DNA of 10,000 nucleotides from Myxococcota bacterium (lineage in GTDB: Bacteria > Myxococcota > XYA12-FULL-58-9 > JABJBS01), in NCBI GenBank assembly GCA_036128675.1, contig JAYYQC010000118.1, forward strand, positions 1 through 10,000. The letters are read 5' to 3'. The position numbers and the translations under genes are program-made. Of this stretch, positions 1 through 10,000 are shown one piece after another (positions within the stretch are counted from its first letter, which is position 1; the number at the start of each line of letters is the position of its first letter). The notes beneath the pieces were generated by a model. It did no database searches and was not told the origin of the DNA. It saw only the letters and a program-made list of their open reading frames with translations.

Positions 1-802
1 TCTACTGGGTGCGGCGATGCTTTGGTTCGGTTGGTTTGGCTTCAACGCCGGCTCTTCGCTTGCCGCAGATGGCATCGCGGTGAACGCGTTGATGACAACG
101 CATCTGGCGGCTGCGAGTGCGCTTTTGGTTTGGAGTCTCTGCGAGCTCGTCAGTGGAAGTCGCCCGAGCGCGACTGGTCTTGCTATAGGCGCAGTCGTGG
201 GCCTCGTTGGGGTCACACCTGCAGCAGGCTTTGTTGATTCGCTCGGAGCGATTGCGATTGGCGGTCTCTCCTCCGTTTCAGCATTTGTTGCGATGACTTA
301 TCTGAAGAGATTCGCGCTTGATGACGCGCTTGATGTCTTTGCTTGCCACGGTGTCGGAGGCATCGTCGGGTCGCTCTTGACCGGTGTTTTCGCGTCGACT
401 GCGGTAAACCCTGGTGGTGCAGATGGCTTGCTTGCCGGCAATCCCGCTCAGATGTGGCCACAGCTCACAAGTGTATTAGCGGCAGGTCTGCTGGCGGCAG
501 TCGGAACCTGGACGATCCTTAAGCTGCTCGAACTCACGATTGGGATTCGAGTCTCATCGAATGATGAGCTAAGCCTAGACCAAGCCCTTCATGAAGAGGC
601 TGCCTACGACCAATCTGGGGAGAAACTTTTTGGTGAACGGGTAGTCGACGCTGGCTACGCGACAGCTGCGCAAGTAACCGAAGCACTTCGCTACCAGGTA
701 GAACATGCTTCATCTACGCCGCTTGGTGAGCTTTTGTGTCAGCGAGGGTGTCTAAAGGCTGACCAGCTCTCGGAGCTTTTAGAGTATCGCTTTAGTCGCT
801 AA
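1..802 (+). CDS. amt: Ammonium transporter (Amt/MEP/Rh family), 5-prime truncated at window edge, about 265 C-terminal residues visible. About 63 extra residues follow the canonical Amt C-terminus.
   Basis: The frame is open from nt 2 (LLGAAMLWFGWFGFNAGS...). WFGWFGFNAGS is the Amt signature around the central TM helices. Successive hydrophobic helices follow (GLAIGAVVGLVGVTPAAGF, LGAIAIGGLSSVSAFVAM, HGVGGIVGSLLTGVFA, LTSVLAAGLLAAVGTWTI). The tail GIRVSSNDELSLDQALHEEAAY is co-linear with the E. coli AmtB C-terminus. The ORF then continues to 802. Confidence 0.9.
   Translation, partial: LLGAAMLWFGWFGFNAGSSLAADGIAVNALMTTHLAAASALLVWSLCELVSGSRPSATGLAIGAVVGLVGVTPAAGFVDSLGAIAIGGLSSVSAFVAMTYLKRFALDDALDVFACHGVGGIVGSLLTGVFASTAVNPGGADGLLAGNPAQMWPQLTSVLAAGLLAAVGTWTILKLLELTIGIRVSSNDELSLDQALHEEAAYDQSGEKLFGERVVDAGYATAAQVTEALRYQVEHASSTPLGELLCQRGCLKADQLSELLEYRFSR
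626..793 (+). other. Tandem MshEN-like motifs (GspE/T2SSE N-terminal type, candidate c-di-GMP-binding) in the cytoplasmic tail of the ammonium transporter
   Basis: Residues 204-227, LFGERVVDAGYATAAQVTEALRYQ, fit the published 24-residue MshEN motif RLGxxLLxxGLLxxxxLxxALxxQ at G3, V6V7, G10, V17, A20L21 and Q24. After a 7-8 residue spacer, PLGELLCQRGCLKADQLSELLEYR fits at L2G3, L5L6, G10, L12, L17, L20L21. Read by eye from the translation. No HMM was run. Confidence 0.5.
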
Positions 803-2602
803 CGCGCTTACCTTCTCCCGAACGGTTGGAAGGGTAAGGTTCACGGAGGTCCCTTCTCCGGGCTTGGTGACGATATCAATTGTGCCCCCAATGGCCCGTA
901 CCCTACTCGTGATATTACGAAGGCCAAAGTGACGATAATTTTCACTGCCGGTGAAGTACCCCCCAAGCTCGAACCCAATGCCCTTGTCTCGAACTGAGAT
1001 GAAGAGGTCGCCTGCAGCCATCTCATTAAGCTCTATTTCCACTTGCTTGGTCTCAGCGTGTTTAACCACGTTGAAGAGCAGCTCTCTTACGCACTGGAAA
1101 GCCAGAGCTTCGATTTCAGCGGACTCTAGGCGTTCGTAACTTAGGGTCGATTCAAGCTGAACAGTGAGCCCAAACCGCTCGGACATCGAGTCTCGGATCC
1201 ATTCAATCGCTGCAATGAACCCGGACTCTTTGAGAACCGCCGGGTTCAGGTCGATGCTCATGGTGCGTACCCGTTGAATGCAATCGTCGATAGAGTCCGA
1301 GAGCACCTTCATCTGGGGCTTGGCATTGGAGGGTAAATTGTTGTCGAGAGACGCTAATTGAAAACGAAGCCCTACGAGGTCTTGTTGAAGACTATCGTGG
1401 AGAACCATTGCGATACGTTGACGTTCGCGGTGCTCCACTTCGTTGACTTGAATTGCTAGCCCTTGCAGCTGGTGGGCTTGTTCCCGGACAGTCTTGAGGT
1501 GACTTGCAATGCCTTTTTCTAGCTGTGCTTTCTGCGATTTTAGCTGGCTAAACTTATGATGGCGTTGTGTGATATTACTCAGGGTCCCGGAGAGCGTTGA
1601 TGCTTGTGCTGAGACCTCCAAGACAACTTGAATCCACTGCTTTTGTGCGGACTCCTGACCGTGCATTGCGATCTCGACTTCTGCGGGGCCATCTTGGCGG
1701 GCTTGTCGGATTGCATCGTAGAGAAGGGGGCGGGAGTCTGGCTCAATGCGTCGAAGGATCTCTTTAAGGCCTAACTCGCTGTTGTCTGGAAGGGCGAGTG
1801 CTTTTGCCGCGATCGGTGAGAATTCCAATTCGTTGGTGTTGAGTGAATAACTCCAAGTACCCATACCAACCGAGTTGAGGCTCATCGCCATGAGATTGTA
1901 GGCGTCGGCTAGGAGGGTCTGGGTAGCCAGCAGAGCGTTGCGCCAGCGCATGAGGAGATTGAGTGTTCGATGCCACATGAGACCTAAGAGGATGAAAAAT
2001 CCTAAGGCACTGATGAGTCCAAGTGTCGCCCAAGACTGCTTTTGGCGAAGACTCTTGTCGAACCTTGCATCGATTTGTTCGAGGAAATTGATCATACCCT
2101 CAAGGTAGATCACCTTTTGCTCATCGTACGCACTCTGTCCGAGAACTGCCCGGGCTCTCTCGATGTCCCCGCTTTGAACCGCTTGCAGTGCTTGGCGCTC
2201 CATCTCCACCAGTCGACGGTTGGCTTCGTCTGTTTGGAGAGTGGCTTGGGTGGTCTGTACGTCGTCCTGAACCAGCGCCTCGGTTTCCTTAAGCAGCTTC
2301 TCAAGCAACGGCTCGTTATAGTTGTATCGCTCAATCCATTGTTCATCACCGGTTGCAACCGCCATCCGTGCTGACATTGTAAGTACTTCGTCGAGACGGA
2401 GAATTTCGCCTCTCAATAAAATGAGTTCTTGTTGCTTCTCTCGCAACTCATTCATCGACTTGGGGATATTGTAGACAAGCAGGGCCAGGTAGCAGACCGC
2501 AACGACGGTGAGAGTTGCGGCGAGGCTTAGAGCCGTTCCGGGATAGTCGACCTTGGTCGTCCCGCTTTTTTCAGCGGGGAACTCGGATAGCTTAGATTTC
2601 AT
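779..2602 (-). CDS. Sensor histidine kinase, HisKA_3 (NarX/LiaS/DegS-type) family: TM1, about 145-aa helical periplasmic domain, TM2, PAS-like domain, coiled coil, HisKA_3, HATPase_c
   Basis: H-box ERQRIAMVLHDSLQQDLVGLRFQL (phospho-His at nt 1397-1399). N-box ELLFNVVKHA. G-boxes DKGIGF and GLRNITSRVRAIGGTIDIVTKPGEGTSVNLTLP. Hydrophobic segments ALSLAATLTVVAVCYLALLVY (aa 24-45) and WATLGLISALGFFILLGLMW (aa 191-210) bracket a helical, heptad-rich extracytoplasmic region. Its start overlaps the upstream response-regulator gene by 11 nt. Its last 24 nt overlap the convergent amt gene. Confidence 0.9.
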   Translation of the reverse strand: MKSKLSEFPAEKSGTTKVDYPGTALSLAATLTVVAVCYLALLVYNIPKSMNELREKQQELILLRGEILRLDEVLTMSARMAVATGDEQWIERYNYNEPLLEKLLKETEALVQDDVQTTQATLQTDEANRRLVEMERQALQAVQSGDIERARAVLGQSAYDEQKVIYLEGMINFLEQIDARFDKSLRQKQSWATLGLISALGFFILLGLMWHRTLNLLMRWRNALLATQTLLADAYNLMAMSLNSVGMGTWSYSLNTNELEFSPIAAKALALPDNSELGLKEILRRIEPDSRPLLYDAIRQARQDGPAEVEIAMHGQESAQKQWIQVVLEVSAQASTLSGTLSNITQRHHKFSQLKSQKAQLEKGIASHLKTVREQAHQLQGLAIQVNEVEHRERQRIAMVLHDSLQQDLVGLRFQLASLDNNLPSNAKPQMKVLSDSIDDCIQRVRTMSIDLNPAVLKESGFIAAIEWIRDSMSERFGLTVQLESTLSYERLESAEIEALAFQCVRELLFNVVKHAETKQVEIELNEMAAGDLFISVRDKGIGFELGGYFTGSENYRHFGLRNITSRVRAIGGTIDIVTKPGEGTSVNLTLPTVREKVSALATKAIL

Positions 2603-3278
2603 TGAGCCAATTGAATGCTAGGCGCAGGAGTTGGGGCTGGGTTTGAACTCCAAGCTTTCGCTTAATATGCGCGTAGTGGGCTTCGACGGTTTTGACACTG
2701 ATGAAGAGCTTTTCGGCGATCAAACGCGTCGCGGTCCCTTGTCCGAGGAGTTCAAATATTTCGAGTTCACGGTTGCTCAAAACGCTATAAGGCGAGAGGT
2801 CGTCTGAAGGGCCACCTTGGACAACGCGTCGTAGAAGTCGGTCTTGTTGATCTCGACTGAGTGCAACTTCGTTGCGTACCACTTGCCGAATGCCATTGAG
2901 AAGTTCCGCAGGAGGAGCGGTTTTCATGAAGTAGCCTCGCGCTCCTGCCTTGAGTGCGCGCTCCGCATAGAGTTCTTCTTCATGCATCGAGACGATCAAA
3001 ATTGGGGTTTCAATATCGGAATTACGAACCCGCCGGATCATCTCAATCCCGTTGATATCACCCAGGCTTAGGTCAGCAACGATAACGTCGCATGAGATAT
3101 GTTTGAGGAGTTCGAGGGCAGACCCGCCGGACTCAGCTTCGCCCACGACGGCCATATCTTCTTGGTTGTCGATAAGTGCTTTCAACCCACAACGTACGAC
3201 TGGGTGGTCCTCAACTAATACAGCTCGAATTGGCCCTTGGTTATCGGTTGCATCAGAAACTAGTTTAGCCGTAGTCAT
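2592..3278 (-). CDS. Response regulator, NarL/FixJ family (REC plus LuxR-type HTH)
   Basis: Receiver motifs AVLVEDHPVVRCGLKALI and CDVIVADLSLGDINGIEMI (acceptor Asp in VADLS), with PILIVSMHEEELYAERALKAGARGYF (K-box). The C-terminal LuxR HTH is LSNRELEIFELLGQGTATRLIAEKLFISVKTVEAHYAHIKRKLGV. A strong SD (AGGAGG) lies 8 nt before the ATG at 3278 on the - strand. The 11-nt overlap with the kinase gene suggests translational coupling. Confidence 0.92.
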   Translation of the reverse strand: MTTAKLVSDATDNQGPIRAVLVEDHPVVRCGLKALIDNQEDMAVVGEAESGGSALELLKHISCDVIVADLSLGDINGIEMIRRVRNSDIETPILIVSMHEEELYAERALKAGARGYFMKTAPPAELLNGIRQVVRNEVALSRDQQDRLLRRVVQGGPSDDLSPYSVLSNRELEIFELLGQGTATRLIAEKLFISVKTVEAHYAHIKRKLGVQTQPQLLRLAFNWLNEI

Positions 3279-3347
3279 GTGATCTACCTCCTGGACCCTC
3301 TTTCTGCAAAAACGTTTCGCTTGTCAACCGCAAGTAAGGGGATGAGG

Positions 3348-3364
3348 GTAGGAAATTCCCCTAC
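3348..3364. promoter_or_regulatory. Inverted repeat GTAGG-N7-CCTAC in the divergent response-regulator/glnII intergenic region (alternative pairing GGGGA...TCCCC)
   Basis: gtaggaaattcccctac was read directly. It lies about 150 bp upstream of the glnII start and about 70 bp upstream of the response-regulator start on the other strand. Confidence 0.25.
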
Positions 3365-3468
3365 GCTCAATGGGCTATCCACCTGAACCAAGAATCAGAT
3401 CCTCCCCCAGTGTTTTAACGCCTCGAACTCCGTTATCCGGAGCGCTGAAATTAGGTGTTGTCGCAAAA

Positions 3469-3481
3469 TAAAATTGCGCAA
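3469..3481 (+). promoter_or_regulatory. Candidate -10 (TAAAAT, 3469-3474) abutting the 8-bp palindrome TTGCGCAA (3474-3481), 26 nt upstream of the glnII start. No good -35.
   Basis: Read from the sequence. The upstream hexamer at the proper spacing (tgaaat) is a poor -35 match, which would suit an activator-dependent promoter. Confidence 0.25.
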
Positions 3482-3506
3482 TGCGTTAAACCCAGGGAGA
3501 AGCGTT

Positions 3507-4562
3507 ATGAAAGCAAATATCCAAGCCGAATATCTATGGCTTGACGGCGCAGAGCCAACTCAGGCCTTACGTTCAAAAACCAGAATTATCCGTCGGGATG
3601 TTGATACTTTACCGTCTCATGATGAGCTACCCACTTGGGGCTTTGATGGTTCATCGACCAACCAGGCGTCCGGCGGCGATTCCGACCTGATGTTGCAGCC
3701 CGTTCGCGTTGTCCGCGACCCGATCCGCGGTGGCTCAAATATCTTGGTCCTCTGCGAGGTCATGCATGCGAACGGCAAGCCTCACGAAACCAACCACCGT
3801 GCTGCTCTTCGTGATGTACTGGACCGAGGCGCCGATCGAGAAAATGCCTGGTTCGGCTTTGAGCAAGAATACACACTCTTCAGTGACCAAACACCTCTCG
3901 GCTGGCCGAGCCATGGATACCCTGCGCCTCAGGGACCTTTCTATTGTTCAGTTGGCGCATCGGTTGCATTCGGCCGAACGGTTTGTCAGCGCCATACAGA
4001 TGCCTGTTTGGATGCAGGACTCTTATTCTTTGGTACGAACGCGGAAGTTATGCCAGGGCAGTGGGAGTTCCAAATTGGTTACCGTGGCGACAAAGACGAG
4101 GTCATTGACCCATTGGTATGTACCGACCACCTCTGGATCGCACGTTGGCTTCTTCACCGTATCGCTGAAGAAGAAAACATCACCGTCTCGTTTGAAAACA
4201 AGCCGGTTAAAGGTGATTGGAACGGTGCAGGAATGCACACGAACTTCTCGACTGATTCAATGCGTAGCCGCGAGCGTGGACGCGGTGTCATCGAAGACGC
4301 CGTGGTTGCTTTAGGTAAGCGTCATGCGGAGCACATTGCAATTTATGGCGCGGGTCTGGATGAGAGGCTTACTGGGCTTCATGAGACCTGTAGCATCAAA
4401 GAATTCAAGCATGGGGTTGCTGACCGTGGTGCTTCAATTCGTATCCCCCGTCATGTTGCTGAAGAGGGCTATGGTTACCTCGAAGATCGACGGCCGGGTG
4501 CGAACGCGAACCCATACCAAGTAAGCGCCGAGATTCTGAAGACTGTCTGTAATTTAGACTAA
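3507..4562 (+). CDS. glnII: Glutamine synthetase type II (GSII, eukaryote-like, about 351 aa)
   Basis: MKANIQAEYLWLDG...LRSKTR, FDGSSTNQASGGDSD, WFGFEQEYTLF, PQGPFYCSVGA, NAEVMPGQWEFQIGY, KPVKGDWNGAGMHTNFST, HIAIYGAGLDERLTGLHETCSIKEFKHGVADRGASIRIPR and YLEDRRPGANANPYQV are co-linear with the GSII motifs of Rhizobium, Streptomyces and plants. Start chosen at ATG 3507 (SD GGGAGAAG 5-12 nt upstream) rather than the TTG at 3474 used by the ORF track. Confidence 0.9.
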   Translation: MKANIQAEYLWLDGAEPTQALRSKTRIIRRDVDTLPSHDELPTWGFDGSSTNQASGGDSDLMLQPVRVVRDPIRGGSNILVLCEVMHANGKPHETNHRAALRDVLDRGADRENAWFGFEQEYTLFSDQTPLGWPSHGYPAPQGPFYCSVGASVAFGRTVCQRHTDACLDAGLLFFGTNAEVMPGQWEFQIGYRGDKDEVIDPLVCTDHLWIARWLLHRIAEEENITVSFENKPVKGDWNGAGMHTNFSTDSMRSRERGRGVIEDAVVALGKRHAEHIAIYGAGLDERLTGLHETCSIKEFKHGVADRGASIRIPRHVAEEGYGYLEDRRPGANANPYQVSAEILKTVCNLD

Positions 4563-4576
4563 GTTAGTGAAGCTTC

Positions 4577-4608
4577 GAGGGGCGTCGACCTATCGGGTGG
4601 CGCCCCTC
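4577..4608 (+). other. GC-rich hairpin between glnII and the glutaminase gene (stem GAGGGGCG / CGCCCCTC, about 16-nt loop). Not followed by a U-tract. Candidate partial terminator or RNA-processing/attenuation element.
   Basis: gaggggcgtcgacctatcgggtggcgcccctc read directly. It starts 15 nt after the glnII stop and ends 28 nt before the glutaminase ATG. Confidence 0.3.
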
Positions 4609-4635
4609 TCATTACCGAACGACTAGGGGAAAGCT

Positions 4636-6243
4636 ATGGAAATTGTATCAGCCGAAGAGGCAGGTCGAGCTAAAAAACGAACGAAGAAAAAATCAACATC
4701 GAAGCTCAACGTTGATCGAGCTGGAATCGAACGCGAAGAAGCGCTTTTTCGGGCTCTTGATACAGCGCGTGAAGGTTTTGTTCGCCGCGAGGTAATCATC
4801 GATGCCCTAAAGCTCAGCGGTTTACGACTCGATGACCCGAGGTTGGACGAAACGCTTAAGCGTCTCGATGACCTCGACCCGCCGAATGAGATCGGCTTAG
4901 AGGCCTTCGCTTCAGCGATTGCACCATCGGTGTCTCTGATTGAACGCGCCTTGAAGGGACGTTTGGTCATTCCTGACTTTAAGCAGTTCGAGGGAGAGAT
5001 CCGGGAGATCTTTGAAGAGACTCGAGGTTTTGAGGGCGGCAAGGTTGCTGACTATATCCCCCAACTCGGTCGCGTATCACCGGAACGTTATGGTGTGGCA
5101 CTGTGTACGATCGATGGACAAAGATTGGCCCTCGGTGATGCCGACGAACGTTTCTGCGTTCAGTCGACCTGTAAGCCAATTAACTATTGCCTCGCGTTAG
5201 ATGAACAAGCACCGGAAAAGGTCCATTCTCATGTTGGCCGCGAGCCGAGCGGTCGTGGCTTTAACGAGCTTGCTCTAAATCACGATGGTCGGCCGCACAA
5301 CCCGATGATCAACGCTGGCGCCATCATGACATGTTCTCTCATCAAGCCTGAGCTTGATGTTGCCGATCGGTTTGATCATGTGATGCAGCGCTGGTCGGAT
5401 CTTTGTGGTGGTGCAAAGCCTTCGTTTAGTAACTCCATTTACCTCTCTGAGCGCCAAACTGCTGACCGAAATTTCGCGTTGGGTTATTTCATGCGTGAGC
5501 ACGAGGCATTCCCAGATGGAACGGAGCTTGTTGATATCCTTGAGTTCTATTTCCAGTGCTGTTCCATCGAAGTGACAGCCGAGATGATGTCGATGGTCGC
5601 TGCGACTCTCGCCAACGGTGGGATTTGTCCGACTACGGGCCTTCGTGTCTTTGGTCCCGAGACGGTGCGAAACTGCCTGTCCTTGATGTACTCGTGCGGC
5701 ATGTATGACTTTTCGGGCGAGTTTGCCTTTACAATCGGTCTACCTGCGAAGAGCGGCGTTTCCGGGGCTATGATGATCGTCATCCCGAACGTGATGGGCG
5801 TGTGTACTTGGTCACCTCGCTTAGACCGTCTCGGCAACAGTGTTCGCGGCATCGAGTTCTGTAAGTCGCTTGTGGAGCGGTACAATTTTCATAACTACGA
5901 CAATTTGACTGGCATCTCCGATAAACGAGATCCTCGTCATGATGCCTCTGCCGATGAAGGGGAGCATATTGCTCTTATGATTTGGGCGGCAAGCCGCGGC
6001 GACCTTGGGGCAATTCAACGCCTTATCGCCCGTGGTGCCTCGATTGATGCGCCTGATTATGACGGACGTACCCCGCTGCATTTAGCGGCGGCTGAAGGCC
6101 AAAGACATGTCGTTGAGTTCTTTTTGAAAGCGGGTGCAAAGCTGTCGCCAGCGGATCGTTGGGGCAACACACCTCTCGATGACGCTAAGAAAGCGAAGCA
6201 CAACGAAATTACGGAAATGCTTGAGCGCTCTGGGCTCAATTAA
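4636..6243 (+). CDS. Kidney-type (GLS-like) glutaminase, full-length eukaryote-like architecture: N-terminal helical (EF-hand-like) domain, serine-dependent beta-lactamase-fold catalytic domain, C-terminal ankyrin repeats
   Basis: GGKVADYIPQL, FCVQSTCKP (catalytic Ser177-x-x-Lys180, nt 5164-5175), HVGREPSG, HNPMINAGAI, SERQTADRNFALGYF, FYFQCCSIEVT, ATLANGG, LSLMYSCGMYDFSGEFAF, GLPAKSGVSGAMMIVIPNVMG and GNSVRGIEFC are co-linear with human GLS/KGA as I recall it. I estimate more than half of catalytic-domain positions identical. The C-terminus holds three ankyrin repeats (DYDGRTPLHLAAAEGQRHVVEFFLKAGAKLSPADRWGNTPLDDA). The N-terminal ALKLSGLRLDDPRLDETLKRL parallels GLS ALKSTGLRTSDPRLKECMDMLRL. 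SD GGGGAA precedes the ATG. Confidence 0.92.
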   Translation: MEIVSAEEAGRAKKRTKKKSTSKLNVDRAGIEREEALFRALDTAREGFVRREVIIDALKLSGLRLDDPRLDETLKRLDDLDPPNEIGLEAFASAIAPSVSLIERALKGRLVIPDFKQFEGEIREIFEETRGFEGGKVADYIPQLGRVSPERYGVALCTIDGQRLALGDADERFCVQSTCKPINYCLALDEQAPEKVHSHVGREPSGRGFNELALNHDGRPHNPMINAGAIMTCSLIKPELDVADRFDHVMQRWSDLCGGAKPSFSNSIYLSERQTADRNFALGYFMREHEAFPDGTELVDILEFYFQCCSIEVTAEMMSMVAATLANGGICPTTGLRVFGPETVRNCLSLMYSCGMYDFSGEFAFTIGLPAKSGVSGAMMIVIPNVMGVCTWSPRLDRLGNSVRGIEFCKSLVERYNFHNYDNLTGISDKRDPRHDASADEGEHIALMIWAASRGDLGAIQRLIARGASIDAPDYDGRTPLHLAAAEGQRHVVEFFLKAGAKLSPADRWGNTPLDDAKKAKHNEITEMLERSGLN

Positions 6244-6250
6244 GGAGACA

Positions 6251-6655
6251 ATGATGAACTTAGTCTTTGTTATCGCAATGAATGCCGCGTTGGCCTGTGG
6301 GGATGCGAAGGCATCGGTGGAATTTGATGTTCCAGCTTCAGTACTGACCGTCAACGATGGTACCGAACTACTTCGTGAGTTGAGTGGCGTTTTGCTAAAA
6401 GATGGCAAAATTACTCTGGATGCTAAGAATGGACTTATTCGAGGTACACAGCAGGCGTTCGGTGATTATCGGGTCTCATTAAACATGGACCGCCGACAAC
6501 TGGCGCTCTCCTGCGGTGCGGCGAAGGCTACCACCGAAGTCACCACGAAGCGTCACGCTCGGGGACGCCGCTTCGCATCAAGCTCAGCGCAGACCTCTCG
6601 TTGCGAACGAGAAGTTTCTGCAATGATCCAGACGCATCTAACGGCGTCACGTTGA
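6251..6655 (+). CDS. Hypothetical small exported protein (134 aa) with an N-terminal signal peptide and a possible lipobox (ALAC). The C-terminal third is Arg/Ser/Thr-rich.
   Basis: ATGATG at 6251 lies 5 nt after a perfect AAGGAG and 7 nt after the glutaminase stop. MMNLVFVIAMNAALAC|GDAKA is a Sec/lipoprotein-type leader. The ORF fills the whole gap between the glutaminase and the convergent yqjG. I recognise no family. Confidence 0.55.
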   Translation: MMNLVFVIAMNAALACGDAKASVEFDVPASVLTVNDGTELLRELSGVLLKDGKITLDAKNGLIRGTQQAFGDYRVSLNMDRRQLALSCGAAKATTEVTTKRHARGRRFASSSAQTSRCEREVSAMIQTHLTASR

Positions 6656-6659
6656 AATC

Positions 6660-7646
6660 CTAAACTGGGAAGCGCTCGGCTCGATCGTGAGAACGATTGA
6701 AGTCGAGCGCAGGTCCTTCCGGCACTATCTGGGTAGGGTTAATGTTTGCGTGGCTATAATAATAGTGGCGCTTAATCTGCTCGATATGGGTTGTCGCTGC
6801 GATGCCTGGTACTTGGTAGAGCTCTCGTAGAAAGTTTGAAAGAGCAGGGTAGTCTTCGATCCTCTGACGGTTACACTTAAAGTGCCCAACATAAACCGCA
6901 TCGAAGCGAATCAAAGTCGTAAAGAGTCGCCAGTCCGCCTCGGTAATTTGATTGCCCACAAGGTAGCGGTTGGTATTCAAGATGGACTCAACCCAATCCA
7001 GCGCCCCGAAGAGCTCCGCAAAAGCCTCCTGATAGGCATCGTGGCTGGTTGCGAAGCCACATCGATACACCCCGTTGTTGATGGTGTGGTAGACCCGCTC
7101 GTTGATGACGTCGATTTCCGAGCGTAGAACTTCCGGGCACAAGTCGAGTGTCGAGCCGGTCAATCCATCGAAGGCAGAGTTCAGCATCCGGATGATTTCA
7201 CTGGATTCGTTACTCACGATGGTCTCAGTTTGACGGTCCCATAAAATGGGGACGGTAACTCGTCCGGAATAGGTCGGCTCCGCTCGGGTGTAGAGCTGGT
7301 GGGCGTAATCAGACCCGTAGAGTGCATCGCCATCGGAGCCCTCACATCGCTCAAAAGTCCAGCCTTGCTCGAGCATATCGGGATGGACGGCCGAGACACC
7401 GATGTGGTCTGTGAGTTCTTTCAGTTCACGAAAAATGAGGGTTCGATGCGCCCAGGGACAGGCATGCGAGATGTAGAGATGGTACCGGCCTGACTCCGCT
7501 TTAAAACCGCTATCGCCTGTCGGGCCAGCGGAGCCGTCAGGGGTGACCCAGCTGCGAAACTGCGCGTCTTCTCTAACGAATTTCCCGCCTGAGGTCTTGG
7601 TATCGTACCAGCGATCCTGCCATTTTCCATCGACCAAGAGGCCCAT
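6660..7646 (-). CDS. yqjG: Glutathionyl-hydroquinone reductase / Xi-class glutathione S-transferase (YqjG/ECM4 family)
   Basis: GRYHLYISHACPWAHRTLIFRELKEL matches the YqjG active-site CPWA motif. Its length (328 aa), the N-terminal WYDTK...GKFVRE and the C-terminal GST-fold motifs are consistent. SD AGGAG lies 7 nt before the ATG at 7646 on the - strand. Confidence 0.88.
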   Translation of the reverse strand: MGLLVDGKWQDRWYDTKTSGGKFVREDAQFRSWVTPDGSAGPTGDSGFKAESGRYHLYISHACPWAHRTLIFRELKELTDHIGVSAVHPDMLEQGWTFERCEGSDGDALYGSDYAHQLYTRAEPTYSGRVTVPILWDRQTETIVSNESSEIIRMLNSAFDGLTGSTLDLCPEVLRSEIDVINERVYHTINNGVYRCGFATSHDAYQEAFAELFGALDWVESILNTNRYLVGNQITEADWRLFTTLIRFDAVYVGHFKCNRQRIEDYPALSNFLRELYQVPGIAATTHIEQIKRHYYYSHANINPTQIVPEGPALDFNRSHDRAERFPV

Positions 7647-7715
7647 ATCTCACTCCTGTAATTCTTAGGCCTTAGTTTGTGCAAAATTTCTTTCAGTTCA
7701 ACCCAACGATGGCAA

Positions 7716-7743
7716 TTGACAGATTTCAGAGTGCTATTATTAT
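7716..7743 (+). promoter_or_regulatory. Sigma70-type promoter for the SPFH gene: -35 TTGACA (7716-7721), 16-nt spacer, -10 TATTAT (7738-7743)
   Basis: A consensus -35 and a near-consensus -10 sit in an AT-rich tract 25-50 nt upstream of the SD AAGGAG (7758-7763). Confidence 0.5.
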
Positions 7744-7755
7744 GATATCATAATA
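7738..7755. promoter_or_regulatory. 18-bp perfect palindrome TATTATGATATCATAATA overlapping the -10 element and transcription start region of the SPFH promoter. Candidate operator.
   Basis: Symmetry was verified base by base, with the centre between 7746 and 7747. Confidence 0.5.
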
Positions 7756-7767
7756 GTAAGGAGAAAA

Positions 7768-8628
7768 ATGATGATGCAAAAAGAAAAGGCAATGAAGCCT
7801 ATTGCTGGGCTTCCGGTAGTGTTGGTCGGGTTATTGTTGGTGGGTGCACTTGTTGTTGGCTTGATTTCCCGATTGCTGCACCCTGGACTCGGAGTCGTAT
7901 TGTTGGCGTTGGTAATCTTCTCGGGCTTTGGACTTTTTATGGTGCATCCGAATCAGGCAAAGGTGCTCCAACTCTTTGGTAAATATATTGGCACCGCTAA
8001 AGAGCCTGGTCTTCGATGGGCGAACCCATTTTTTACAAAGCTGAATGTTTCGACAAGGATCCGAAACTTCGAAACTTCAAAGCTTAAAGTCAACGACCAG
8101 CGAGGTAATCCAATCGAAATCGCAGCGGTTGTTGTTTGGAAGGTCGTTGATACCGCCGAAGCGGTTTTCGAAGTCAATGACTTTGAAAATTTCGTTAGGG
8201 TCCAGAGCGAAGCTGCGATTCGAACATTGGCATGCCAGTACCCATACGACGCCCATGGTGAGGATGAAGTATCATTGGTGAGTAATACGACACTGATATC
8301 CGGCCGATTGAAGGAAGAGGTACAGGGGCGTCTTGATAAAGCGGGTATCGAGATCATTGAGACCCGTATGTCGCATTTAGCTTATTCCCCTGAAATTGCA
8401 CAGGCAATGTTGCGGCGTCAGCAGGCCAGCGCAGTCATTGCTGCGCGTCGGGAAATTGTTGATGGTGCAGTCGGGATGGTAGAGCATGCACTCGAAGATC
8501 TCTCAGCGAAAAAGGTAGTGGATTTGGATGAAGAGCGTAAAGCAGCAATGGTGAGCAATCTCTTGGTCGTGCTTTGTTCTGAGTCGGAAACACAGCCAAT
8601 CATTAATACCGGTAGTCTTTACAACTAG
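7768..8628 (+). CDS. SPFH/band-7 (stomatin/prohibitin-like) membrane protein with two N-terminal transmembrane helices
   Basis: VLQLFGKYIGTAKEPGLRWANPFF...TSKLKVNDQRGNPIEIAAVVVWKVVDTAEAVFEVNDFENFVRVQSEAAIRTLA shows the SPFH pattern, followed by the C-terminal helical region EIAQAMLRRQQASAVIAARREIVDG. TM helices: PIAGLPVVLVGLLLVGALVVGLI and GLGVVLLALVIFSGFGLFMV. Three in-frame ATGs (7768, 7771, 7774) follow the SD. Confidence 0.88.
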   Translation: MMMQKEKAMKPIAGLPVVLVGLLLVGALVVGLISRLLHPGLGVVLLALVIFSGFGLFMVHPNQAKVLQLFGKYIGTAKEPGLRWANPFFTKLNVSTRIRNFETSKLKVNDQRGNPIEIAAVVVWKVVDTAEAVFEVNDFENFVRVQSEAAIRTLACQYPYDAHGEDEVSLVSNTTLISGRLKEEVQGRLDKAGIEIIETRMSHLAYSPEIAQAMLRRQQASAVIAARREIVDGAVGMVEHALEDLSAKKVVDLDEERKAAMVSNLLVVLCSESETQPIINTGSLYN

Positions 8629-8640
8629 TAGTGGTTGGTT

Positions 8641-8808
8641 GTGCCAAATAAAAAGCAAATACTTCTGAGACTGGACCCTGAGACCCACGATGCTTTGAAG
8701 CGCTGGGCGGACGATGAGTTGCGCAGTGTCAATGCTCAGATAGAGTATGTGCTACGGGAGTCGCTCCGAAACTCGGGGCGATTGTCGAAGCCGAAGAAAA
8801 AAATCTAA
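8641..8808 (+). CDS. Arc/MetJ-type ribbon-helix-helix DNA-binding protein (55 aa). Absent from the ORF track because it is under 60 aa.
   Basis: Manual translation from GTG 8641: [55 protein letters not shown], stop TAA 8806-8808. The beta-strand ILLRL, helix [10 protein letters not shown], the RS(V/L)NAQIEY and the LRESL pattern are those of widespread small Arc-like RHH proteins. It begins 12 nt after the SPFH stop. An alternative TTG start at 8635 exists, and no clear SD is present. Confidence 0.6.
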
Positions 8809-8815
8809 GTGGGCT

Positions 8816-9625
8816 CTAATTCTTGGGTGCCCTTTGTCGGCTGACTCGACTCAAAACGAGATGTGTCAACCCGGCAAGGTGTCTTGAGATCCAAACAATG
8901 AGTTTGCCGTGATTCGTGATAATGACCTCGCGTTTGCGGCGATAGAGTGCTCTGCTTATCTGTGAGGCGGCTTTTTCGGCCGACATCACTAGCCAGGCAG
9001 GAACTGGGTCTTTAGCATGTTCACGGTAGACACCTTGATTGTTTACTTGACGAATTTCGGATGCGACAAAACCCGGGCAGATCAAGGTGGTGCTGATACC
9101 GTCGCTTCGCCATTCAGCCCACAATGATTGTGCGAGCGCGCGCACCGCAAATTTACTCATCGCATACGCCGAGTTTCCCGGAAGACTCACAAAGCTATTT
9201 ACACTTCCGACAATCGCTGCACGCCCTTGGCTCTTTTGGAGTTCTGGGTGGGCGGCACGGAGGGTATTCATGACGCCATAGACGTTGGTCTCAAGCTGAC
9301 GTTGGTAGTCGTCGTTGGTAAGTTTCAACAATGAGCCCGCAACGCCAAACCCAGCATTTGCGACGACCATATCTAAGCGCCCATAAGCGCCGATGATCCG
9401 GGCTACCGCATTGGTCATAGCCTCAGGCTCGGTGACGTCGCATTGGATTGCGAGCGCTTTTGCACCACCTGCGGTCAATGAGTCCACTAAGCTCTCAAGT
9501 CTCTCGAGGCGCCGAGCCCCAACCGCAACTGTGGCACCTTCGCTGGCGAGCTTTCGGGCTAAGGCTTCCCCGATGCCTGCAGAAGCTCCGGTGATAAAAA
9601 CAACTGAATTTGACCAGCGACCCAT
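8816..9625 (-). CDS. Short-chain dehydrogenase/reductase (classical SDR) family oxidoreductase
   Basis: VVFITGASAGIGEALARKL (TGxxxGIG cofactor motif), VANAGFG (NAG), catalytic S...YAMSKFAV (YxxxK). AAGGAG lies 8 nt upstream of the ATG at 9625 on the - strand. Confidence 0.9.
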   Translation of the reverse strand: MGRWSNSVVFITGASAGIGEALARKLASEGATVAVGARRLERLESLVDSLTAGGAKALAIQCDVTEPEAMTNAVARIIGAYGRLDMVVANAGFGVAGSLLKLTNDDYQRQLETNVYGVMNTLRAAHPELQKSQGRAAIVGSVNSFVSLPGNSAYAMSKFAVRALAQSLWAEWRSDGISTTLICPGFVASEIRQVNNQGVYREHAKDPVPAWLVMSAEKAASQISRALYRRKREVIITNHGKLIVWISRHLAGLTHLVLSRVSRQRAPKN

Positions 9626-9721
9626 CGATGCTACTCCTTTGTGATGGCAGACTCCTACGGTTGAGCGCGGTCTTTGGTCAAGGCTGAGTCTGGTTAGAGC
9701 TCAGAGCCACATCGATAAAAC

Positions 9722-9744
9722 CCAGGTAATTGCCGGTTACCTGG
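9722..9744. promoter_or_regulatory. Inverted repeat CCAGGTAA-N7-TTACCTGG in the SDR/GMC divergent intergenic region
   Basis: ccaggtaattgccggttacctgg read directly. Both arms are 8 bp and perfect. Confidence 0.4.
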
Positions 9745-9756
9745 TCTCCGCTCTTT

Positions 9757-9830
9757 GAGATTGGTAATCTCGGATCTGACCAATCCGTTATAATTTGGTA
9801 ATAGGTGGTAAGAGCAGTTGGCATTACCAA
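9757..9830. promoter_or_regulatory. Cluster of TTGGTAAT / ATTACCAA motifs: GAGATTGGTAATCTC (9757-9771), TTGGTAAT (9795-9802), GGTGGTAAG (9805-9813), ATTACCAA (9823-9830). A TATAAT -10-like hexamer sits at 9789-9794.
   Basis: With the arms of the 9722-9744 repeat, the pentamer GGTAA/TTACC occurs 6 times in about 110 bp. About 0.2 would be expected by chance. The last two full motifs form TTGGTAAT-N20-ATTACCAA. Confidence 0.4.
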
Positions 9831-9902
9831 TTCTTTCTGGCTAGATATAAGCTCGGGCATAGAGCACTATCATCGCGCGGTCCGAACGGGATTGGAGAAA
9901 GT

Positions 9903-10000
9903 ATGCGGGATTACACGACGATCATAGTTGGCGCTGGCTCTGCGGGTGCGGTTATTGCGGCGAGGATGACAGAATCCTCAGACCATAATGTGTTGTTGAT
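9903..10000 (+). CDS. GMC-family FAD-dependent oxidoreductase (choline-dehydrogenase-like), N-terminal fragment running off the window
   Basis: [33 protein letters not shown] carries the GMC/Rossmann GxGxxG FAD-binding start ([21 protein letters not shown]...VLLLEAG pattern). SD GGAGAAAG lies 4-11 nt before the ATG at 9903. Confidence 0.8.
   Translation, partial: [32 protein letters not shown]

Follow-up and report, generated by a model that had tools for sequence, protein, structure and literature searches.

A gene unit that couples a glutamine synthetase to a glutaminase with kidney-type domain architecture, together with a positionally conserved hairpin and a dedicated two-component regulator, was found in the 10,000-nucleotide stretch of Myxococcota bacterium contig JAYYQC010000118.1 analysed here (assembly GCA_036128675.1, positions 1 to 10,000, forward strand; termed the window in the following) and is conserved in related genomes. 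In the window, the gene of a type II glutamine synthetase (GSII) is followed after 73 nt by the glutaminase gene and this after 7 nt by the gene of a small exported protein, all three on the plus strand, and a response regulator gene is oriented divergently to the GSII gene (Table 1). The protein families concerned and the glutamine cycle as a physiological idea are already known; the conserved unit itself, whose synthetase can be of type II or of type III (GSIII), appears to be undescribed. A literature search for glutamine synthetase-glutaminase operons found nothing relevant, most subscription journals being beyond its reach. We tentatively read the locus, with a confidence slightly short of even, as a nitrogen-regulated unit whose glutaminase, produced in sub-stoichiometric amounts by transcription through the hairpin, acts as a valve on the glutamine pool. 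An earlier note on this DNA had listed the coordinates of the three genes, the gaps of 73 and 7 nt and the hairpin at 4577-4608, every one of which is correct according to the open reading frame (ORF) table and the sequence, and its gene identities (GSII, kidney-type glutaminase and small signal-peptide protein) are borne out by Pfam matches and homologues.

The argument for a functional coupling is based on the gene order in other genomes; compared loci or lineages are designated by L-numbers and one unlinked GSII relative by P0131. The order of a divergent regulator, GSII, hairpin and glutaminase is kept in six marine lineages labelled Myxococcota (glutaminase 71-85% identical), and the identities of GSII and glutaminase to the window proteins fall in parallel (83/85, 74/75, 72/74, and 72/71%). 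GSII is followed by glutaminase also in L028, a distant Myxococcota metagenome-assembled genome (MAG) whose glutaminase is 62% identical. A second configuration is present in the Myxococcales MAG GCA_009692555.1 (L029, 4514-9647), where amt, the gene of a 731-residue GSIII and the gene of an ankyrin-type glutaminase follow one another with a 4-nt overlap and a 5-nt gap, GSIII occupying the slot that is held by GSII in the window; because this spacing leaves no room for a terminator or a promoter, the three genes are almost certainly part of one predicted transcript. A third configuration is found in the cultured Bacteroidota Flavobacterium sp. MC2016-06 (L005, 2746-9632), in which GSII and an ankyrin-type glutaminase are divergent neighbours and a Reg_prop/Y_Y_Y HisKA_3 hybrid kinase and a NarL-type regulator are encoded 3' of GSII, i.e., the four gene kinds of the window in a rearranged form. 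We estimate the chance of one specific neighbour pair at about 1e-3 per genome, and measured against this value the three configurations, one of which involves a non-homologous synthetase type, argue for functional coupling. The earlier note had stated that absence of the gene order from every related genome would speak against its proposal; the order is present in related genomes, and the association of the pair is conserved and non-random. Within the window, GSII, glutaminase and the small ORF share the properties expected of an operon, namely the same strand, short gaps and a conserved order. No glutaminase gene follows that of P0131, the unlinked GSII relative (68% identical), and the linkage therefore belongs to particular lineages rather than to the GSII subfamily. 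In a rough neighbour-joining tree, which is without support values and therefore indicative, the linked cases lie on separate glutaminase branches.

The synthetase gene begins with an ATG that is preceded at a distance of 5 nt by the Shine-Dalgarno sequence GGGAGAAG; this start was preferred to the TTG at 3474 because all homologues begin at the same M-K/x-x-x-I-Q/K-AEY. The protein, whose size is within the GlnII length class (about 330-370 residues), matches PF03951 (Gln-synt_N, E 1e-10) and PF00120 (Gln-synt_C, E 4e-15), and the sixteen proteins of solved structure that match it best are without exception GSII enzymes of eukaryotes or actinobacteria, headed by GlnII of Streptomyces coelicolor (PDB 4BAX, E 3.6e-114). 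It agrees with this enzyme and with rhizobial GSII in length class, domain pair and motifs. It differs from bacterial GlnII in two respects: it scores 454.6 bits on NF041605, the GlnII equivalog model, and does not reach the cut-off of 500 (the runner-up model gives 51 bits), and it carries an insertion of seven residues after QWEFQIG. Judged by its profile scores, the window GSII ranks as a divergent member of a subfamily and not as a GlnII equivalog in the strict sense. The insertion is common to many GSIIs of Planctomycetota, Myxococcota and Acidobacteriota and was rejected as a marker of a glutaminase-linked subfamily, since it also occurs in many unlinked GSIIs. The motifs FDGSST, NAEVMPGQWEFQ, GDWNGAGMHTNFS, NGAGxHTNFS, RLTGxHET, SIRIP and EDRRP are present, the catalytic motifs are invariant in the family alignment, and the enzyme is predicted to be catalytically competent. 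Compared with L031, a 276-kb long-read metagenome contig of a sister strain that is 90% identical to the window, the gene shows 3, 1 and 59 differences at codon positions 1, 2 and 3, respectively. Members of the GSII family are not expected to possess a tyrosyl-adenylylation site, and the covalent control known from type I glutamine synthetase (GSI) is absent in them. The earlier note had suggested looking for such a control site, and no adenylylation loop was found when the protein was aligned with the solved GSII relatives. The N-terminus of GSII contains neither a signal peptide nor a hydrophobic stretch.

The glutaminase, likewise starting with ATG (the coordinates in Table 1 include the stop codons), is composed of an EF-hand_14 domain (PF17959, residues 34-113, E 1.2e-10), which aligns with the matching region of human KGA, a catalytic domain covering the entire PF04960 profile (residues 135-421, profile positions 1-286 of 286, E 8e-110) and an Ank_2 domain (residues 449-529, E 4e-22), which can be aligned, up to residue 530, with the ankyrin part of KGA. 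The label kidney-type is justified because all three domains were matched. Residues 36-530 align with human KGA (5UQE) with an E of 2.9e-160, about half of the residues being identical over the alignment. The conserved motifs include DYIPQL with the catalytic tyrosine, QSTCKP with the Ser-x-x-Lys motif, HNPMINAG, SERQTADRNFA, GMYDFSG and KSGVSG; all substrate-binding and catalytic residues of human glutaminase are retained, and the active site is predicted to be intact. The domain order and the catalytic residues are thus those of mammalian GLS/KGA and GLS2, whereas the activation loop has diverged (GRGFNELAL versus human GLRFNKLFL), so that GFNEL replaces RFNKL, and a mitochondrial presequence is lacking. 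In the position of the presequence of the animal enzymes, the window protein has a tail rich in lysine and arginine (AKKRTKKKSTSK, encoded at 4636-4720), whose character, not its sequence, is conserved across the window, L017, L018, L021, L024, L029 and L030, and which is probably disordered. This N-terminus contains no signal peptide. With a signal peptide or hydrophobic N-terminus in neither enzyme, separate compartments, which the earlier note had considered as a way of avoiding futile cycling, are not indicated. Differences from L031 amount to 7, 3 and 121 at codon positions 1, 2 and 3. The glutaminase family is abundant in bacteria (7744 matches), and the ankyrin repeats are kept in all bacterial members; according to a passage of a review (PMC13142944) that cites Pasquali et al. 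2017, ankyrin repeats were gained early in glutaminase evolution. For these reasons the three-domain architecture itself is not new. The same review describes bacterial glutaminases as lacking the filament interface and as not needing phosphate (PMC13142944), a statement whose coverage of ankyrin-bearing bacterial forms is not clear. In the catalytic and activation-loop regions, no feature was seen that distinguishes linked from unlinked glutaminases. Among the other members of the family, long-form glutaminases of 640-700 residues from MAGs of other Myxococcota and Proteobacteria (L003, 2298-4157; L012, 163-2013) match the ankyrin region twice, which points to an extended or duplicated ankyrin array. 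In an Acidobacteria-labelled lineage (L027, 6988-9575) and a related one (L032, 4867-7481), a gene of PF04187 (Cofac_haem_bdg, ChaN-like) takes the place of a synthetase gene immediately upstream of the glutaminase gene with a gap of 8 nt, and its product is a second conserved partner of the ankyrin-type glutaminase family.

The hairpin between the two enzyme genes consists of 14 pairs, begins 15 nt after the GSII stop codon and ends 27 nt before the glutaminase ATG. The 63-nt stretch 4563-4625 folds at -27.6 kcal/mol (z -2.9), a value reached by 3 of 200 shuffled sequences. The sequence downstream of the stem is UCAUUACC, hence a U tract is missing, and the hairpin was not called in a terminator scan of the window. 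A strong stem-loop beginning 10-30 nt past the GSII stop codon is present in all seven GSII-linked lineages (z -2.3 to -7.6); the hairpin sequences cannot be aligned between lineages, so its position is conserved and its sequence is not. The hairpin of L017, with T6 after it, has the shape of a canonical intrinsic terminator; the others have a weak U tract or none. In L031, several substitutions fall inside the hairpin and the stem is still maintained, an observation whose weight is limited by long-read errors. The hairpin is absent in L029, where GSIII and glutaminase are 5 nt apart. The distance from the hairpin or T tract to the glutaminase ATG is 27 nt in the window and about 21 nt in L017, which makes a separate promoter 3' of the hairpin impossible there, and for lack of promoter room the transcription of glutaminase must start upstream of the hairpin in these two cases; in L018, L021, L024 and L028 the distance is 43-62 nt. 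When 3200-6800 was scanned against Rfam (E up to 1), neither a riboswitch nor another known RNA was detected in the leader of GSII or in the spacer between the two genes. Intercistronic stem-loops are known to set unequal expression within operons, examples being the puf operon of Rhodobacter and the repetitive extragenic palindromic (REP) hairpins of Escherichia coli malEFG. The window shows a comparable anatomy, with a stable hairpin directly after the first cistron and the next cistron accessible by read-through only, which makes a comparable role a candidate here; it differs from malEFG in that the hairpin is not a repeated element. A REP-like repeat was rejected on the finding that neither the window nor 21 kb of L031 contains a second copy. 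The hairpin is probably a partial terminator or a 3'-end-stabilising element, and we infer from its anatomy an attenuating or 3'-stabilising intercistronic hairpin, which fits the idea of an adjusted stoichiometry. The proposal of the earlier note that the hairpin might set the ratio of the two enzymes is supported in that the hairpin is a candidate for this role, a stem-loop following the GSII stop codon in each of the seven lineages. A second hairpin, of which the window shows no counterpart, is present in L028 (ACCTCTTCGCTAATCGGGAGAGGT, approximately 455-491); it pairs with the glutaminase gene's Shine-Dalgarno region and could gate translation of that gene.

The response regulator is the most constant neighbour of the pair, and its gene has the same divergent position in L017, L018, L021, L024/L025 and L030. 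A histidine kinase gene adjoins that of the regulator in the window and in L017 only; its NCBIfam matches are to NarQ/MctS-like models and are below threshold. The intergenic region between regulator and GSII contains palindromes resembling GGGAATTCCC in six lineages, including the window (Table 1). With L021 or L030 as reference, the palindrome is the top shared 14-mer, its score being reached by about 2% and 0% of 200 shuffles, respectively; with the window as reference it is not significant, 41% of the shuffles reaching the score. We consider it as a candidate operator, possibly for the response regulator, and as a lead only. Simple pattern scans of the window found no sigma-54, NtcA or TnrA sites upstream of GSII.

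The reading that we favour would combine these elements as follows. A NarL-type regulator, with its kinase in this genome, would belong to a unit in which it is encoded divergently to GSII, stem-loop, glutaminase and, optionally, the small exported protein, with an ammonium transporter (Amt) gene nearby. The promoter region upstream of GSII would drive the expression of both GSII and glutaminase, and the stem-loop past GSII would stop or stabilise most of the transcripts. Since glutaminase would be reached by read-through only, we propose that its amount stays below that of the synthetase. Both enzymes would be located in the cytoplasm and catalytically active, and the glutaminase would function as an overflow valve by which surplus glutamine is hydrolysed, the glutamate pool protected and the glutamine signal stabilised. 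Kidney-type glutaminases are characterised by a millimolar Km for glutamine, inhibition by glutamate and allosteric switching. Upon a sudden rise in ammonium, a GSII without an adenylylation off-switch would drain glutamate into glutamine and the glutaminase would return the excess; the outcome would be a controlled glutamine cycle with a low ATP cost at low glutamine. We infer co-transcription of the genes, an attenuating hairpin, the kinetics of the enzymes and their physiological role; the sequences themselves show which genes are present, that the active sites are intact, that gene order and hairpin position are conserved and that the pairing recurs with another type of synthetase.

Several observations weigh against this reading. 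Eight lineages of the glutaminase family (L002, L003, L004, L006, L007, L008, L027 and L032) have no synthetase gene within the flanks, so that the coupling is facultative. The hairpin of L017 resembles a full terminator, which could mean separate transcripts. A sigma-70 promoter scan of the window gave 2 sites versus 2.3 expected, i.e., the level of shuffled sequences, and no confident promoter; with promoter and terminator counts at this level, the scan is uninformative for the interval between GSII and glutaminase, too. Finally, the activation-loop lysine of human glutaminase (in RFNKL), whose mutation activates the human enzyme, is a glutamate in the window protein (in GFNEL), and for this reason mammalian kinetics and phosphate activation are not simply transferable to the window glutaminase.

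To our knowledge, none of the classical glnII genes has been described beside a glutaminase gene. In Bacillus subtilis, the glutaminase gene of the glsA-glnT operon is located beside, and probably controlled by, the GlnK-GlnL two-component system; there, in contrast to the window, the partner is a glutamine transporter and induction is catabolic, by external glutamine, and the regulator family and the glutaminase architecture differ as well. Glutamine cycling by glutamine synthetase plus glutaminase is known from Rhizobium etli (glutaminase A) and Neurospora crassa. In E. coli, both activities operate concurrently in one cytoplasm, and GlnA together with GlsA/GlsB causes spikes of ammonia under manganese shock (PMC9603457). 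These cycles resemble the one proposed here in that the same two reactions occur in one cytoplasm and turnover serves homeostasis or signalling rather than net synthesis. The genes of these cycles are not linked, in the bacteria GSI is the main synthetase and the bacterial glutaminase has a single domain, whereas the window contains an adjacent unit with a three-domain glutaminase. The textbook picture of glutamine synthetase control by adenylylation, PII and feedback inhibition derives from GSI; how GSII and GSIII, which lack the adenylylation switch, are restrained is much less clear. A glutaminase encoded directly behind the synthetase suggests that the product pool may be limited by regulated hydrolysis instead of by switching off the synthetase. 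Two synthetase types and two phyla are represented among the occurrences of the unit, and the recurring pairing suggests a deliberate glutamine-balancing circuit rather than an accident. It also supplies a genomic context for the relatives of human GLS in bacteria, whose ankyrin and EF-hand-like domains still lack an agreed function, and Flavobacterium sp. MC2016-06 is a cultured carrier.

The strongest alternative, which we regard as rather unlikely, is a regulatory juxtaposition in which the genes share a nitrogen neighbourhood and perhaps one regulator and are expressed under opposite conditions, GSII under scarce ammonium and glutaminase for pH control or in the presence of abundant glutamine or organic nitrogen. 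In that case the hairpin would be a genuine terminator, and the promoter of glutaminase (and the small ORF) would overlap the end of GSII. Such an arrangement agrees with the stem-loop after GSII in every GSII-linked lineage and with the T6 of L017, which is typical of an efficient intrinsic terminator; the 43-62 nt between hairpin and glutaminase in L018, L021, L024 and L028 might hold a promoter, and the Flavobacterium pair, being divergent, is separately transcribed. Moreover, as the title of a paper by Commichau et al. (2008; cited in PMC3412718) indicates, bacteria generally avoid futile glutamate/glutamine cycles. With only 27 and about 21 nt after the hairpin in the window and L017, however, the glutaminase promoter would need to be located inside GSII there, and the hairpin-free L029 genes, 5 nt apart, point to obligatory co-transcription. 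Juxtaposition alone accounts neither for an order that persisted while the proteins diverged by 15-29% nor for its recurrence with a synthetase of a non-homologous type. If the genes nevertheless prove to be oppositely regulated, the finding shrinks to a tidy nitrogen-metabolism neighbourhood.

A physical complex, in which the ankyrin repeats of the glutaminase (or its EF-hand-like domain or its basic N-terminal tail) dock on the glutamine synthetase oligomer and one enzyme gates the other, is improbable. It would represent a governor of glutamine synthetase at the protein level, comparable in role with adenylylation or with the inactivating factors of cyanobacteria. Ankyrin repeats serve as protein-protein interaction modules, and their retention in all bacterial members is in line with docking, as are the tight linkage, the parallel divergence of GSII and glutaminase and the established lack of GSI-type covalent control in GSII. 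These points have to be set against L029, in which the same glutaminase type is paired with the structurally different and much larger GSIII, against the eight lineages listed above that carry the glutaminase without a neighbouring synthetase, and against the lack of any sequence feature distinguishing linked from unlinked GSIIs and glutaminases. Marginally less probable again is the extended form of this idea, according to which the glutaminase is a dedicated governor that binds the synthetase oligomer encoded upstream, the switchable synthetase-hydrolase complex replacing the adenylylation/PII cascade in bacteria relying on GSII or GSIII. As a corollary, the multidomain architecture later inherited by eukaryotic GLS would have evolved first for a partnership with glutamine synthetase.

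We give an equally small chance to an ammonia or pH circuit, in which the pair and Amt generate or buffer ammonia for pH homeostasis, or spill energy, instead of guarding the glutamate pool. The activity of GlnA plus GlsA/GlsB raises ammonia and cytoplasmic pH in E. coli (PMC9603457), and an Amt gene is located near the pair in four lineages (the window, L018, L024 and L029), in L029 within the same operon. A closed cycle of glutamine synthetase and glutaminase, however, gives no net ammonia, and the locus contains no GadC-type antiporter or acid-stress genes that would point to acid resistance. The gamma-glutamyl-amide synthesis/hydrolysis module of PuuA/PuuD or theanine type that the earlier note had offered, for which only the general logic speaks that glutamine synthetase-like ligases and amidohydrolases can pair, is hardly credible and was rejected by family and motif tests, as the synthetase scores 454.6 bits on the GlnII model and 32.3 bits on the gamma-glutamylputrescine synthetase model NF045547 (cut-off 650) and keeps the motifs of bona fide GSII enzymes, and the hydrolase is a PF04960 serine glutaminase without a C26 (Peptidase_C26) or GATase match and hence does not have the PuuD fold.

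The small ORF, which starts with ATG and is preceded by AGGAGA, shows 9, 3 and 37 differences from L031 at codon positions 1, 2 and 3 and is a real, fast-evolving gene. Homologues of 133-137 residues are encoded at the same place, after glutaminase, in three other lineages (L017, L021-23 and L030), and the gene is absent in L018 and L024, which keep the enzyme pair; it is an optional third gene of the unit. By inspection, the window protein has an N-terminal hydrophobic signal (MMNLVFVIAMNAALAC-G) with a lipobox-like AALAC and without a basic n-region, and the homologues of L021 and L030 have classical signals (MRT...SAFA-E and SAQA-K). Cys16 is invariant in the subclade of the window, two further cysteines and a KRHxRGRRF motif are conserved, and the protein is probably a lipoprotein. 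It has no Pfam or NCBIfam match, and in an exhaustive HMMER search full-length homologues were found only within the clade and no relatives outside it; weak multi-stretch matches to giant repetitive proteins are regarded as compositional and were rejected. The AlphaFold model is poor (pLDDT 59).

Table 1 Features of the window, with positions, strands and the basis of each assignment
Feature	Position	Strand	Basis
Ammonium transporter (Amt), 3' part of gene	17-802	+	Pfam Ammonium_transp, E 1.3e-50
Membrane sensor histidine kinase, HisKA_3 (NarX/NarQ-like) class, PAS region	779-2602	-	Pfam HisKA_3, HATPase_c
NarL/GerE-family response regulator	2592-3278	- (divergent to GSII)	Pfam Response_reg, GerE
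Imperfect palindrome GTAGGAAATTCCCCTAC, candidate operator	3348-3364		Regulator-GSII intergenic region
Type II glutamine synthetase (GSII/GlnII-like), 351 residues	3507-4562	+	Pfam Gln-synt_N, Gln-synt_C
G+C-rich stem-loop without U tract	4577-4608	+	Folding versus shuffles
Glutaminase, kidney-type (GLS/KGA) domain architecture, 535 residues	4636-6243	+	Pfam EF-hand_14, Glutaminase, Ank_2
Small exported protein, probably lipoprotein, 134 residues	6251-6655	+	Homologues, codon-position differences
Xi/YqjG-like glutathione transferase	6660-7646	-	
SPFH protein	7768-8628	+	
Arc-like ribbon-helix-helix ORF, 57 residues	8635-8808	+	Pfam Arc, E 6e-4, narrowly missing cut-off
Short-chain dehydrogenase	8816-9625	-	

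A TARA Oceans scaffold and GOS reads match the window with full identity, and the nearest named relatives of GSII and glutaminase are from MAGs labelled Myxococcota or Deltaproteobacteria; the DNA is therefore that of an uncultured bacterium of the sea, probably a member of the Myxococcota. In L031, the glutaminase gene (11131-12737) is split into two called genes, and the genes of Amt, the SPFH protein and the short-chain dehydrogenase are likewise split; most likely these splits reflect frameshifts left uncorrected in the long reads and not pseudogenes, since the same gene is intact in assemblies of short reads.

At two places in the window, genes converge closely: the 3' ends of the Amt and histidine kinase genes overlap by 24 nt (779-802), and 4 nt separate the small ORF from the glutathione transferase gene, so that there is no room for a terminator in either pair. 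The C-terminus of Amt is formed by a tail of about 55 residues with two tandem 24-residue motifs, LFGERVVDAGYATAAQVTEALRYQ and PLGELLCQRGCLKADQLSELLEYR (residues ~200-256 of the fragment), which fit the MshEN pattern for binding of cyclic di-GMP (NCBIfam NF053729, E 7e-8, with 32.1 bits falling short of the cut-off of 38). An alignable tail is encoded by the Amt genes of L018 (6443-7852) and L024 (9359-10756), and an Amt regulated by cyclic di-GMP would be unusual. The Arc-like ORF, directly 3' of the SPFH gene, is 86% conserved in L017.

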